Shown piece after piece: positions 1 to 15,242 of a stretch of 64,000 nt of DNA. The stretch comes from a virus, in IMG/VR virus record IMGVR_UViG_3300027804_000049, positions 1-64,000 of that record; one strand, written 5' to 3'. The position numbers and the translations under genes were made by a program. The number at the start of each line of letters is the position of its first letter. The stretch's first letter is position 1. Below the pieces are notes generated by a model. That model was not told where the DNA came from. It was given only the letters and a program-made list of their open reading frames with translations, and did not search any database.

Positions 1-2943
1 ACCGGTGCAGTTGGTGCAACAGGCTCGACCGGTGCAGTTGGTGCAACAGGTGCAACAGGCGCTGGTGAAACTGGCGCAACAGGTGCAGTTGGAAATACAG
101 GAGTTACCGGTGCAGTTGGTGCAACAGGTGTAACAGGTGCAACAGGTGCAACAGGTGCAACAGGTGCAACAGGTGCAACAGGTGTAACAGGTGCAACAGG
201 TGAACGTGGAGTTAGCGCACTGTCTTGGACATACAAAGTAAATACAACGACTTTAACAGACCAAGACCCTGGCAATGATTACATAAGTTTTAATGCTAAC
301 CCTTTTACTTCAGCCACACAGGTTAAAGTAGACGATAATCCTTACGGACTAAATACAACTCTTCATAATTTATTTTTAAGTATTCAGAGTGGTTATCTAA
401 CATTAACAGAACAAAGTAATCCTTCTACATATATTACCTATCAAATTACGTCTTGCGTAGATGGCACAGCAACAAATGAAACTGAAGATGGAAGTTATGT
501 AGTCTTCAATGTATCGGTAGTTAGTACCTATGGAGTAATAAATAACGAAGATTTTGTTACGCTATCTATAGGAACTGTTGGTCAACAAGGTGCTACTGGT
601 GCTACTGGTTCGCAGGGCATTACAGGACCAACTGGTGGTGTTGGCGCAACTGGTGCTACTGGTGCTACTGGTGCTACTGGTGTTACTGGTGCAACCGGTA
701 ATTCAATCACTGGTCCAACTGGTACAAACGGACAAACAGGTGCAACAGGCGCACAAGGACAGACTGGCGTCACTGGTCCAACAGGCCCTGGAGGAGTTCT
801 TGGTGTTACAGGCTCGATTAACTATGACACTGGAACTGGTATACTTTCACTTGATGAAGGTGTTACAGGCGGGTTAGCAACTCTTAACGCATCAGGCGTA
901 GTTCCCGATGAGCAGCTCCCTGATGATCTTGTTCGAACAGACGCATTAACAGGCGCTCTTGGCGATTACATTCTTCTTACTGAAAAAGCCGCAGCAAACG
1001 GTGTTGCAACTCTTGATGGATCATCAAAGATTCCAATAGATCAACTTCCTGGTCTTGCAATCACAGATACATTTATTGCAACCTCTGAAACACAGATGCT
1101 TGAGCTTATTCTTGAGCGTGGCGATGTTGTAGTACGAACAGATGAACAAAAGACATACATCTTTGCAGTTGATCCACTTCTTGTAGATAACAAGCAGCTT
1201 ATCAGTGACGTTGCAACACTGCAGACTACCGTTGCTCATGGACTAACTACTGGACAGACAGTTGTAATTGATGGAATTGGTAGTCCTTTTGATGGAACAT
1301 ATACTGTCGCCTCAACCCCAACCTACACCACCTTTACGTATGCTAAAGTTGCGACGAACGTAAGCTCAACAGCGGTATCTCCTGAAGGAACACTGGTAAG
1401 TGCAGATAACTTCCTAGAACTTCTCAGCCCAACTGATGTTGGAGCAACAGGTGCGGTTGGAGCAACAGGTGCGACAGGCGCAACTGGTAATACTGGCGCA
1501 ACAGGAAATACTGGTGTTACTGGCGCAACCGGTGCGGTTGGTCCTACTGGTCCTGGTGGATCAATTGCCTACTACGGATCGTTTTACAGTACTCAAACAC
1601 AGACAAACGTAAATGGTCCTACTGGCGCAAACGCCATGACCTTTAACAATACTGATTTTGCCAACGGAATTTCAATTGTATCGAGCTCACGCATTACGTT
1701 TGCACATGAAGGTAAATATAATCTTCAATTTTCAGCTCAATTTGATAAGACAGACTCAGGAACTGATGAAGCTGACATCTGGCTTAGTAAAAATGGAACA
1801 AATGTATCTAACACAAATACAAAGTTAACATTAACTGGAAATGAATGGAAGGCAGTTCCAGCATGGAACTTCCTAATTGAAGCTAATGCCAATGACTACT
1901 ACGAACTTTACTGGTCATCTGCAGATACGGGCATGCGTATTCTTGCGCAGGCAACGCAAAATGATCCATCACGTCCTGAGATTCCATCTGTTATTCTTAC
2001 AGTTACACCTGTTATGTACTCCGAGATTGGAGAAACTGGTGCGATTGGCTCAACTGGAGCGACTGGCGCTACAGGAGCTACTGGTGCTACAGGTGCAACA
2101 GGAGAAGCTGGCGCAGCAGGCGCAACTGGAGCTACTGGCTTAACAGGAGCAACTGGTAACACTGGAGCAACTGGAAGTACTGGCTTAACTGGAGCTACTG
2201 GCTTAACAGGAGCTACCGGTGTTGATGGCGCAACAGGGGCAACAGGTAATACAGGTGTGACTGGTCTAACTGGTAACACTGGAGCAACTGGCGTTGATGG
2301 TGCGACAGGCGCGACTGGTCCAACAGGCGCAACCGGCGATGACGGAGTATTCTCAGTTGCTCAAGAAACCGCGCCAACTGGAGCAGAAACTGGTGACGCT
2401 TGGTTTGATCCGTCAACTGCAACACTTTACATTTACTACGATGGTTTTTGGTTAGAGGCTTCCAGCTCCGCTCTTGGCGAGGTTGGACCTGCAGGCGCTA
2501 CAGGCGCGACTGGTCCAGCCGGAGCGACTGGACCTACAGGTGCAACTCCTACGTTTGCGGCAATGAACTACGCTCAAACAGTAGGATCACGCCAGACTAA
2601 CATCTCTGCAAGCGACGTTACCATCGTAAGCACGAGCATCACGACAAATGGAAAACCCGTGCAGGTTATTGTTACCGGTGATGCGGAAAACACAGTTGGC
2701 GGCGCCTGGATTATTCTTCAACTCTACCGTGGCTCAACTGCCATCGGAAACAAGATTCACGTTGAAGCTTCCTCTGGCTCTGAAAACGTTCCATATTGTC
2801 TACAGGTTATTGACACTCCTTCGGCTGGAACGTATACATACGCGCTTAAAACTGCAAGTACTGCTGCCACCGGAGCGTTTAACTTTGGTGAAACTGATGG
2901 TCCTGTAATCAGCGCCGTTGAGCTTGGTGTTGTTACTTCTTAA
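1..2943 (+). CDS. Collagen-like (Gly-X-Thr) fibre protein, 5' truncated by the window edge
   Basis: Frame 1 read by hand is open from base 1 into the 1096..2943 ORF. GAT/GVT triplet runs alternate with globular domains; C-terminal beta-rich tip. Confidence 0.85.
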
Positions 2944-3027
2944 GACTATCTAAATCATCCTTTTTTCCCTAATATAGAATGGCTCCCGGGAATTCTCCCA
3001 CTCGAGTGATAAGAGAAAAGGAATACT

Positions 3028-13273: not shown

Positions 13274-14344
13274 ATGAAAGTTGCCGCCTATTGCGTTGCC
13301 CTTAATGAGGAAAAACATGTCGAAAGGTGGGTTGAAACCACCGCGGGTGCAGATTATCGCCTAGTGTGTGATACAGGATCTACAGACGGCACGGTTGAAA
13401 AGTTACGCTCATTAGGCGTAACCGTATTTGAGATTCGAGTTAGACCTTGGCGTTTTGACGTTGCACGTAACGCGGCGCTTGCACTTTTGCCAGACGATGT
13501 CGTTGTATGTCACGTAATTGATATGGACGAGGCAGTTGACGTAGATTTTTATGACAAGGTACGTGAAAACTGGCAGGAGGGCGCAAATAAAGGTTGGCAC
13601 GAGTTTGATACAGGTCACGTGTGGATGGGAGCCCGTTTACACGCACGACACGGAATTTACTGGCGTTGGCCAGTTCACGAGGCATTTGTTCCATCACTAA
13701 ATACACCGTTGCGCAGCGTAACAATTCCATCAAAGATGTATCACAAGCCGGATAATACAAAATCGCGCAGTCAGTATCTATCAATGTTAATTAACGCAAG
13801 TAAGGAATTTCCAAAGGATCACCGCATCTGGGTGTACCTCTGTCGCGAGTACACGTTTAATAGGATGTGGGAACTTGTAATTCAAGCTGCAGAGCAGGTA
13901 ATAAAGTATAGTGATGATTGGTTTGTTGAGAGAGCTGCAGTGTGTCGTTGGGCAAGCGAGGCTAATCGCATGCTTGGTAACATTGAGGAGGCGCATCGTT
14001 GGGCCGATAAGGCAGTTGAGATTGATCCCTGCGGTGAAAATTACTTTGAAAAAGTTAGATGTTACTACGCGCAATCAGACTGGAGTAACATGTGGGAAAC
14101 TTGTAAGAAGGTTGCTGCATGCGATCCAACAAAACACTATCTATCAAGTGAGGCATTGTGGAAATGGCAACTTGATGATATGCGTGCACTTTCCGCGCAC
14201 TATCTTGGTGATAAGAGAAAAGCTGTTAAGTATGGACAAAGTGCGTATGATAATAACCCTAGTGATACGCGACTTAAAAATAACATTGACTGGTATAACA
14301 AGGGTATTGAAGAGCAGATAAAGGCTAATAACCCGAGTGAGTAA
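13274..14344 (+). CDS. GT2-family glycosyltransferase with C-terminal TPR-like helices
   Basis: NEE, DTGSTDGT, FDVARN, DMDE (DxD), VHE motifs; helical repeats ending ..RLKNN. Confidence 0.85.
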   Translation: MKVAAYCVALNEEKHVERWVETTAGADYRLVCDTGSTDGTVEKLRSLGVTVFEIRVRPWRFDVARNAALALLPDDVVVCHVIDMDEAVDVDFYDKVRENWQEGANKGWHEFDTGHVWMGARLHARHGIYWRWPVHEAFVPSLNTPLRSVTIPSKMYHKPDNTKSRSQYLSMLINASKEFPKDHRIWVYLCREYTFNRMWELVIQAAEQVIKYSDDWFVERAAVCRWASEANRMLGNIEEAHRWADKAVEIDPCGENYFEKVRCYYAQSDWSNMWETCKKVAACDPTKHYLSSEALWKWQLDDMRALSAHYLGDKRKAVKYGQSAYDNNPSDTRLKNNIDWYNKGIEEQIKANNPSE

Positions 14345-15242
14345 TATCTTTATTGCCATATTGGCAAAGCAAAAGGAAGGAGTTTTGCCTTTATTCTTGC
14401 GCTCGCTTTATGAGCTTGACTACCCTAAGGAAAACATATCACTATACGTAAGAACAAATAACAACACGGATAACACGAAGGAAATCTTAGAAAGTTGGCT
14501 AGCTAAACACCGAGCAGAATATCGCTACGTATCCTATGATAGCAGTGATATTGCAGACGCAGTTCAAGAATACAAGGTTCATGAGTGGAACGGCGTACGT
14601 TTTCGCGCACTTGCTAAGATACGTCAGGCAAGTATAGATGCGTGTCTACAAAGTGATTGTGATTACTACTTTGTAATTGACGTTGATAACTTTTTATTTC
14701 CTGAAACGCTAAAGGATCTTATAGAGGCTAACAAACCTATAGTCGCGCCACTGCTACGTTACGCGGTTGCAAATGACGAGTTTCCAGATACACCTGAGGA
14801 CCAGGAGCGTGTGGGAAGTCACAAGTGTCGCTACTACTCGAATTACCACCACATGGTAGACGACTATGGCTCAATATTAAATGAGCCAGTGTATTATCAA
14901 CTTCTTTACCGCGTTCAAGGATATAAGGGAATTTGGGATGTTGATTGCGTGCATTGCACATATCTTATACAACGTAAATACTTAGACAAGCTTACGTATC
15001 TCGAGGATTCTGATCGCTATGAGTACATGGTATTTTCAGAGTCAGCGCGTAAGGCTAAAATTAACCAGTATCTCGATAATCGCAAGATCTACGGAATACT
15101 TACACTCACTGAAAATGCTAAAGTCTGCGAGTGGTTATTTGATAATCTAAAGGATATGGAGACGCGCGACGAGCGCTATCAACAACATAATCCACAGGAT
15201 GTCTTTTACACGCCTTCTAATGCAGTTATACTAGCTGACTAA
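14337..15242 (+). CDS. GT-A glycosyltransferase resembling the COLGALT (GT25) N-terminal / PLOD accessory domain
   Basis: IAILA..LDYPK..I..NTDNT.EIL..W..RF..KIRQA..DY.F.IDVDNFL..TL..LI..NK.IVAPLL..YSN..VHCTYLI mirrors the remembered COLGALT sequence. Confidence 0.75.
   Translation: MSNIFIAILAKQKEGVLPLFLRSLYELDYPKENISLYVRTNNNTDNTKEILESWLAKHRAEYRYVSYDSSDIADAVQEYKVHEWNGVRFRALAKIRQASIDACLQSDCDYYFVIDVDNFLFPETLKDLIEANKPIVAPLLRYAVANDEFPDTPEDQERVGSHKCRYYSNYHHMVDDYGSILNEPVYYQLLYRVQGYKGIWDVDCVHCTYLIQRKYLDKLTYLEDSDRYEYMVFSESARKAKINQYLDNRKIYGILTLTENAKVCEWLFDNLKDMETRDERYQQHNPQDVFYTPSNAVILAD

Follow-up and report, generated by a model that had tools for sequence, protein, structure and literature searches.

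Among the closest described counterparts of the locus reported here are one human and one bacterial collagen glycosyltransferase (GT). Human COLGALT1 (GLT25D1) carries out catalysis with its C-terminal GT25 domain, and its front domain, GT1, is non-catalytic, holding Ca2+ and UDP-galactose (UDP-Gal) for folding stability (PMC12003778). SgtA of C. difficile is a 358-amino-acid (aa) protein with a GT-A domain (residues 1-260) followed by tetratricopeptide repeats (TPRs, residues 262-358); encoded directly upstream of bclA3, it adds beta-O-linked N-acetylglucosamine (beta-O-GlcNAc) to Thr of the BclA3 collagen repeats in a Mn2+-dependent manner (PMC7157674). The subject of this analysis is the first 64 kb, called the window below, of the 114,610-base virus record IMGVR_UViG_3300027804_000049, where genes of collagen-like fibre proteins are followed on the same strand by the genes of two GTs, P0006 and P0005. 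P0006 is built like SgtA, and P0005 is homologous to GT1 of COLGALT1. From the observed homologies, folds, residue conservation and genomic linkage we infer a target, an order of action, donors and a benefit, and the probability that the GT pair O-glycosylates Thr of the phage's own collagen-like fibre shafts is put at about 65%. To our knowledge, glycosylation of Gly-X-Thr collagen is experimentally established only for a few spore proteins (BclA, BclA3), with SgtA as the sole defined transferase. The two GT genes, which overlap by 8 nucleotides (nt), and the four collagen-like genes are as follows.

13274-14344, + strand: P0006, GT2 (GT-A) plus TPR protein glycosyltransferase of the SgtA/GmaR/SunS type, 356 aa; proposed initiating Thr O-glycosyltransferase.
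14337-15242, + strand: P0005, stand-alone GT-A glycosyltransferase homologous to COLGALT1 GT1 and the LH3 accessory domain, 301 aa, with DxD motif D115/D117 and H206; proposed second transferase.
1-2943, + strand: collagen-like tail-fibre protein, 5' end cut by the record start, 980 aa seen; 101 G-x-y triplets, 77 with Thr at Y.
3028-5265, + strand: collagen-like tail-fibre protein, 745 aa; 108 triplets, 73 with Thr at Y; matches PHROG tail-fibre families with E-values (E) down to 5e-82.
5385-8093, + strand: collagen-like tail-fibre protein with globular C-terminal tip, 902 aa; 71 triplets, 52 with Thr at Y; N-terminus matches tail collar phrog_3449.
9461-9718, + strand: small collagen-like protein, 85 aa; fibre N-terminal motif plus 10 triplets, 8 with Thr; matches Pfam Collagen and tail collar phrog_3449.

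P0005 is a relative of the front domain of COLGALT that stands alone. With phmmer it matches residues about 53-300 of human COLGALT1 (E 1.5e-22) and the LH3/PLOD3 accessory domain (E 1.6e-10). The profile of a 34-member family matches COLGALT1 GT1 over profile positions 2-242 and chain residues 10-253 (E 1.4e-47), the LH3 accessory domain (6.6e-23) and Mimivirus R699 (1e-9). When the AlphaFold2 model of P0005 (mean pLDDT confidence 93.7) was searched with Foldseek, the top eight PDB neighbours were all COLGALT1 (E 4e-24, TM-score 0.71, 27% identity), followed by LH3, R699 (E 6e-14) and then generic GT-A enzymes. Pfam Anp1 (PF03452, GT62 mannosyltransferases) also scores above its cut-off (39.2 versus 28.8 bits), covering only the nucleotide-binding half (residues 5-139 against profile positions 24-169 of 263), and the fold match to Mnn9 (E 7e-11) is far below that to COLGALT1. 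No PHROG or NCBIfam family was found for P0005, and a search of 50,697 deposited phage records gave no matches, either by megablast with 9000-20000 or by tblastn with P0005. The GT25 catalytic domain, with its Glu-Asp-Asp metal site, has no match in P0005 and none in 21 viral loci; as it is without this domain, P0005 is not a COLGALT enzyme. A first-pass annotation of this DNA had proposed similarity of P0005 to the COLGALT N-terminal domain. That similarity is real, and the five motifs quoted for it are all in the translation (LDYPK, DNTKEILESW, IDVDNFL, NKPIVAPLL and VHCTYLI). Its wording "COLGALT-like enzyme" stands for the domain homology and falls for the enzyme label, since the matched GT1 is non-catalytic in human and the phage has no GT25. 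Automatic annotation already labels some members of the P0005 family "GT25 N-terminal domain".

GT1 of human COLGALT1 (PDB 9evj, 8zgc, 9u7h) and the LH3/PLOD3 accessory domain share with P0005 the GT-A fold, the DxD, a C-terminal His and the Trp, Arg, Arg and acidic residues that contact the UDP-sugar. Both COLGALT1 and P0005 are tied to a collagen substrate, on the phage side by gene linkage. The animal substrate is hydroxylysine, whereas the phage collagens carry Thr, with 0 Lys at Y. Counted in runs of at least four G-x-y triplets, 210 of 290 triplets over the four collagen-like genes (72%) have Thr at Y and 0 of 290 have Lys; the X residue is mostly Ala, and Lys is outside the eight commonest X residues. 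No lysyl hydroxylase or 2-oxoglutarate oxygenase was found among the open reading frames (ORFs) scanned at 9025-25199. The earlier description of four collagen-like genes with mostly Thr and no Lys at Y, in a block ending with a GT2-TPR enzyme and then a GT-A protein, is borne out gene by gene. PHROGs places the collagen ORFs of the window with tail fibres and collagen-like minor tail proteins.

P0006 is like SgtA, by the published description of the latter, in its size (~357 aa), its N-terminal GT-A domain and C-terminal TPRs, and the position of its gene near a G-x-T collagen (PMC7157674). The phage differs from the SgtA/BclA3 system in adding a COLGALT-GT1-like GT and a nucleotide-sugar pathway, and in having virion fibres, not the spore coat, as the proposed substrate. 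P0006 matches phrog_13126 (E 9e-68); its motif D33-T-G-S-T-D38 and D83 are invariant, and D85 is nearly so. The best PDB sequence match is GmaR (E 6e-5), which we take to be the Listeria flagellin O-GlcNAc transferase. In the P0006 model (pLDDT 89) helical repeats occupy residues 165-352, and the best folds are ThuS and SunS over the full length (E 2e-17), with further matches to CTPR and OGT-TPR structures. SunS/ThuS and Listeria GmaR are, like P0006, GT2 plus TPR proteins, and they glycosylate peptides or proteins; their acceptors differ (glycocin Cys or Ser, flagellin), and their identity to P0006 is only ~14%. The nearest atlas clusters of P0006 are GT2 plus TPR proteins from phages and Bacillota. 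Because of the SgtA architecture and the ThuS/SunS fold, by analogy the first, Thr-directed step would likelier be the work of P0006 and a later step that of P0005. The first-pass annotation had the COLGALT-like protein acting on Thr; its part in the glycosylation is kept, as probable second transferase, and the direct role on Thr passes to P0006 as the likelier enzyme.

The linkage of this GT pair with Gly-X-Thr collagens extends well beyond the window. Clustered at 90% identity, the relatives of P0005 number at least 755; at 50% identity the family has 952 representatives, many of which are multidomain proteins. In 18 of the 21 viral loci a P0006-type gene abuts or overlaps the P0005-type gene, and G-x-T collagen ORFs are found within the fetched flank in 11 of them. 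Whole-record searches were made for five viral records, among them those of three of the four loci (L015-L018) that lack a collagen ORF within 10 kb. All five contain (G-x-T)x8 runs, on the GT strand in every case where their coordinates could be set against the locus ranges; for L015-L018, the three searched records have the runs upstream of the GT, ~14 to 19 kb away in two. Bacterial loci were taken from one genome per species, as the best 80 of 203 stretches encoding a P0005 relative, and come from Mesorhizobium, Methylobacterium, Methylobacter, Paenibacillus, Bacillus, Parachlamydiales, TM6, Gemmatimonadales and others. GT2 and P0005-like domains are in a single ORF in 49 of these 80 loci and adjacent in 6 more; 13 loci carry GT25 as part of a fusion, and 11 have it nearby. 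The 13 GT25 fusions have the full COLGALT layout, 11 of them with a collagen-like neighbour. One such layout, the 1882-aa Bradyrhizobium protein P0158 (TPR, GT2, P0005-like, GDSL, GT25), matches the GT1 and GT25 halves of COLGALT1 collinearly.

Linkage of the GTs to collagen genes in other genomes had been named beforehand by the first-pass annotation as one of the points on which its proposal would turn; it holds in every viral record with enough sequence and in 49 of the 80 bacterial loci, where a collagen-like ORF, in nearly all cases one with Thr at Y, lies at most 10 kb away (576/579 triplets in Mesorhizobium, 347/348 and 175/176 in others). In a 6.0-Mb Bacillus and a 5.6-Mb Paenibacillus genome, all (G-x-T)x6 sites belong to one gene, which is 2 to 5 kb away from the GT. 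Reversing the pattern as a control in five bacterial genomes gave 0 matches against 35 to 560 for the true pattern, and chance is excluded. The Bacillus gene order is collagen, mannose-1-phosphate guanylyltransferase-like, P0005-like, GT2 plus TPR (359 aa), GT4 and nucleotidyltransferase. The possibility that G-x-T ORFs in GC-rich bacterial loci are alternative-frame artefacts was considered and rejected: the repeat DNA is real, several frames are open, and the Bacillus example is confirmed by a match to Pfam Collagen (E 1e-27). Overlapping frames over repeats were not counted as separate genes.

Some individual loci have features of their own. In Mesorhizobium sp. AR07 (L053, 430-8198) a ~2180-aa collagen-like ORF, the one with 579 triplets, lies beside a DUF4347 protein and is divergent from an 819-aa fusion of GT2, P0005-like and GT25 domains, in which the GT25 part, matching profile positions 3-116 of 199, seems truncated. 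In a metagenome-assembled genome of Parachlamydiales, an obligate intracellular lineage, six tandem collagen-like ORFs of ~375-400 aa (L054, 93-6963) are separated by 3 kb from a P0005-like gene that stands alone. The loci L015-L018 carry more genes upstream of the GT pair (at 1-9000), namely a GT4, another Anp1-like ORF and a BNR/Asp-box protein of 938 aa, which suggests a larger, variable glycan cassette.

The ligand contacts of human GT1 are retained in the family. The UDP-Gal and metal contacts L59, W135, R139, R147, D166, D168, D265 and H235 of the human domain (PMC12003778) align with L9, W84, R88, R96, D115, D117, E229 and H206 of P0005, all of which are family-invariant. The 21 viral and 80 bacterial loci supplied 106 microbial domains for an alignment in which 23 positions with polar or aromatic residues are essentially invariant, whether the domain is viral stand-alone, bacterial stand-alone, GT2-fused or GT2+GT25-fused. 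Human GT1 departs at ~10 of the microbe-invariant positions (K13A, E14A, R39A, N41D, H82K, C207S, Y209F, Y221F, Q244M and D247C). Four stand-alone bacterial domains also have Cys at the otherwise invariant D247, the same change as in human GT1. Judged from the residues, the pattern would fit an active microbial enzyme and a decayed animal descendant. In a tree that took in microbial and viral sequences only, the phage sequences appear as one clade (support 0.999) and the stand-alone forms from Bacillota, Chlamydiae and TM6 as another group; the fusions are proteobacterial.

Directly beyond P0005, on the opposite strand, are three genes for sugar-nucleotide enzymes.

15231-16211, - strand: GFO/IDH/MocA oxidoreductase; best named match UDP-GlcNAc 3-dehydrogenase (NF040723, E 2e-60, below the equivalog cut-off).
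16211-17302, - strand: DegT-family sugar aminotransferase, QdtB/WbpE-like (QdtB 7e-72, WbpE 3e-53).
17295-17810, - strand: left-handed beta-helix sugar N-acetyltransferase of the WlbB/QdtC type (PDB 3mqg 3e-30, QdtC 6e-16).

The trio thus encodes 3-dehydrogenase, 3-aminotransferase and N-acetyltransferase types together, and none of the scores reaches the NCBIfam equivalog cut-offs. Enzymes of these three types act in series in the WbpB/WbpE/WbpD, WlbA/C/B and GnnA/B pathways, where such a series yields a UDP-2,3-diacetamido-2,3-dideoxy sugar. The trio differs from these pathways in being phage-borne and in its sub-cut-off scores; the substrate of the phage enzymes may be either UDP-GlcNAc or its uronic acid. 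From the sequence matches, the product is probably UDP-GlcNAc3NAc, a donor for the fibre module. The dehydrogenase gene and the P0005 gene overlap tail-to-tail by 12 nt (15231-15242), so there is no space for an intergenic terminator between the converging units. The module had earlier been given as 1-15242; its genes stand as described, and its end probably does not, as the trio at 15231-17810 would extend it. The position of the trio is kept in the five closest viral relatives. A second clade, with ~58% GT identity, has an NAD-dependent epimerase/dehydratase at this spot, sometimes with a methyltransferase and extra GTs. The nearest deposited genome, the metagenome-assembled Actinomycetia phage DSL-LC01 (OQ999401.1; Dishui Lake, 129 kb, syntenic), has neither a P0005-like GT nor a sugar gene there. 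This swap in one clade, and joint absence with the P0005-like GT in DSL-LC01, suggests that it is the second transferase that these variable sugar genes supply.

Put together, the phage would make several trimeric collagen-like fibres with shafts of (Gly-Ala/Val/Pro/Asn-Thr)n, and two soluble GTs from the end of the fibre strand block, probably translationally coupled given the 8-nt gene overlap. Thr O-glycosylation would take place in the host cytoplasm, before or during fibre assembly. P0006 would hold the repetitive chain through its TPR domain and put the first sugar on Thr, as SgtA does with beta-GlcNAc on BclA3, and P0005, dependent on a metal held by its DxD and His, would then attach a second sugar. 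The trio would probably turn host UDP-GlcNAc into UDP-2,3-diacetamido-2,3-dideoxyglucose as the second donor. The likely benefit would be a stabilised, hydrated triple helix that is free of hydroxyproline, and fibres that are protected or masked.

Several observations weigh against glycosylation of fibre Thr by this pair and are best taken with the alternatives that they favour. The nearest solved relative of P0005 is a non-catalytic domain, and it is conceivable, though improbable, that P0005 is itself a non-catalytic partner that binds nucleotide sugar and metal for stability and scaffolds or regulates P0006, which would do all of the chemistry. Human GT1 is non-catalytic despite its DxD and its binding of UDP-Gal (PMC12003778), and the frequent fusion to GT2 in bacteria is compatible with an obligate complex. 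However, K13, R39, H82, Y209, Y221, Q244 and D247, which are lost in human GT1, are essentially invariant across the 106 microbial domains, including the 13 with GT25; stand-alone family members exist in Bacillota and phages; and the variation of the neighbouring sugar-nucleotide genes suggests use of a second donor. The case for P0006 is also weakened by its Pfam TPR_2 and Glycos_transf_2 matches, which are below curated cut-offs (GT2 20.1 versus 23.3 bits), and by its modest pairwise similarity to bacterial partners (E 1e-4 to 2e-5). As for the linkage, the phage loci are mutually related, so that linkage among them is not independent, and 31 of the 80 bacterial loci have no collagen ORF within 10 kb, many of those loci being truncated. 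In mycobacteriophages the known glycosylation targets are capsid and tail tube, not fibres. Che8-type mycobacteriophages resemble this phage in that actinophage soluble GTs decorate the phage's own virion proteins; they differ in their targets, the C-terminal tails of capsid and tail-tube proteins, and in using other GT families. A non-fibre target of this kind, or a host envelope polymer, is a little less probable again than a non-catalytic P0005. It would fit the phage-encoded capsid and tail-tube glycosylation known in actinophages, the distance of 4.6 to 14 kb between GTs and fibre genes, with five ORFs of unknown function between them, and the presence of TarS, TarP and RmlT among the weaker GT-A fold matches. 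It does not sit easily with the linkage of the GT family to G-x-T collagen genes in unrelated bacteria, with the action of TPR-bearing GT2 enzymes of P0006's fold on peptides or proteins (PMC7157674), or with the block itself, where no membrane segment or lipid-carrier gene was found.

The strongest rival concerns the trio only, and is itself doubtful: the trio may stand outside the fibre module and supply an amino sugar for hypermodified DNA, made via hydroxymethyl-cytosine and the GT-B-like genes at 22344-24586. This also counts against a trio that serves the fibres, as the three genes are on the minus strand together with, and downstream of, whiB and the genes of replication and nucleotide metabolism. 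That strand also has a thymidylate synthase homologue (31721-32587) whose best PDB match is CMP 5-hydroxymethylase (E 5e-22), and two overlapping GT-B-like paralogues (22344-24586) that are conserved across the phage group. However, the GT-B-like genes are found both where the trio is present and where it is absent, and in DSL-LC01 a sugar gene of their own (UDP-galactopyranose mutase) lies between them, whereas the trio abuts the fibre GTs with its 12-nt tail-to-tail overlap, and its spot is taken by other sugar-nucleotide genes and GTs in the second clade (a weak point, with three lineages compared). The distribution of the GT-B genes modestly supports use of the trio for the fibres over DNA modification. 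DNA as the target of P0005 and P0006 themselves was considered separately and rejected because of the collagen linkage of the same GT pair in bacteria. Glycosylation of fibre Thr by the pair is the reading retained here.

The remaining + strand genes of the fibre block are the following.

8403-9032, + strand: fibre-tip-like protein without collagen, with a "...LKWAAPA" segment in common with the C-terminal part of the 5385-8093 protein.
9735-10094, + strand: ORF matching only PHROGs of unknown function.
10109-11119, + strand: ORF, as above.
11120-12097, + strand: ORF, as above.
12097-12951, + strand: ORF, as above.
12932-13228, + strand: ORF, as above.

Homologues of the 8403-9032 protein lie upstream of the GT pair in the viral loci L008-L014. 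All five co-directional ORFs between the fibres and the GTs are conserved in L012, where the small collagen-like gene at 9461-9718 is also kept; none of the five has a Pfam or NCBIfam match. Between the collagen runs a ~30-residue module ("...Y-YYDG-W-EA") occurs once in the 1-2943 protein, once in the 3028-5265 protein and twice in the 5385-8093 protein, and may be a trimerisation or registration knot.

The source, an uncultured virus with a genome of about 115-130 kb, is a siphovirus of low-GC freshwater Actinobacteria, as indicated by the gene set of the window (Dit-like distal tail protein, head-tail adaptor, PolA, helicase and WhiB regulator) and its GC content of ~0.44. The 1018-aa ORF at 41029-44085, within the tail-gene block, is probably the tape-measure protein. 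In DSL-LC01 the order is collagen genes, GT2-TPR glycosyltransferase and then converging WhiB, pyrimidine-dimer glycosylase, methyltransferase, helicase and PolA; at 12433-15077 of that genome, the stretch without a P0005-like GT, a gene annotated as "tryptophan halogenase" precedes the GT2-TPR gene. Continuation of the 5'-open first ORF (1-2943) at the other end of the record was considered, and no + strand open frame of at least 150 aa is found there. A protein identical to P0005 is also encoded on a 129,087-bp contig. Given this contig, the start within a collagen repeat and the lack of a continuation, the record probably breaks inside the repeat of the first collagen gene, and at 114.6 kb is probably incomplete.

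Virus-encoded enzymes together with virus-encoded collagen-like proteins are also seen in Mimivirus (L230, R699), where R699 is a weaker match of P0005; the Mimivirus system differs in following the animal-type hydroxylysine route (Lys, lysyl hydroxylase, GT25). Collagen Thr O-glycosylation is of a known kind. What is new is the linkage of the GT family with collagens across phages and bacteria, including the complete COLGALT layout beside collagen genes; no report linking the P0005 family to bacterial or phage collagens was found in the literature searched. The first-pass annotation held that P0005 would bear on the origin of the eukaryotic enzymes. The question stands, and P0005 as a special bridge does not, as it is one of a very large microbial family (the 952 cluster representatives above), within which the bacterial GT25 fusions bear more on the matter. 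It is tentatively proposed, as a possibility well short of probable, that the microbial P0005 family is the still-active form of COLGALT GT1 and of the LH/PLOD accessory pseudo-glycosyltransferase domains. Under this proposal the combination of collagen with the GT1-like/GT25 layout would have arisen in bacteria and their viruses on Gly-X-Thr, and animals would later have come by it through inheritance or acquisition and directed it at hydroxylysine instead, their front domain decaying meanwhile.

The picture is of a conserved kit in which GT2 plus TPR is joined by a COLGALT-GT1-like GT, in some cases also by GT25, and in which the sugar-nucleotide genes are exchangeable; the kit accompanies Gly-X-Thr collagens in phages as well as in many bacterial phyla. 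If the proposed function is right, sugar-coated collagen fibres would be common on virions and bacterial surfaces, and the link of collagen to a COLGALT-type layout would be older than animals. The non-catalytic front domain of the human collagen galactosyltransferase could then be approached through active microbial relatives, and the kit would offer simple soluble enzymes for producing glycosylated recombinant collagens.

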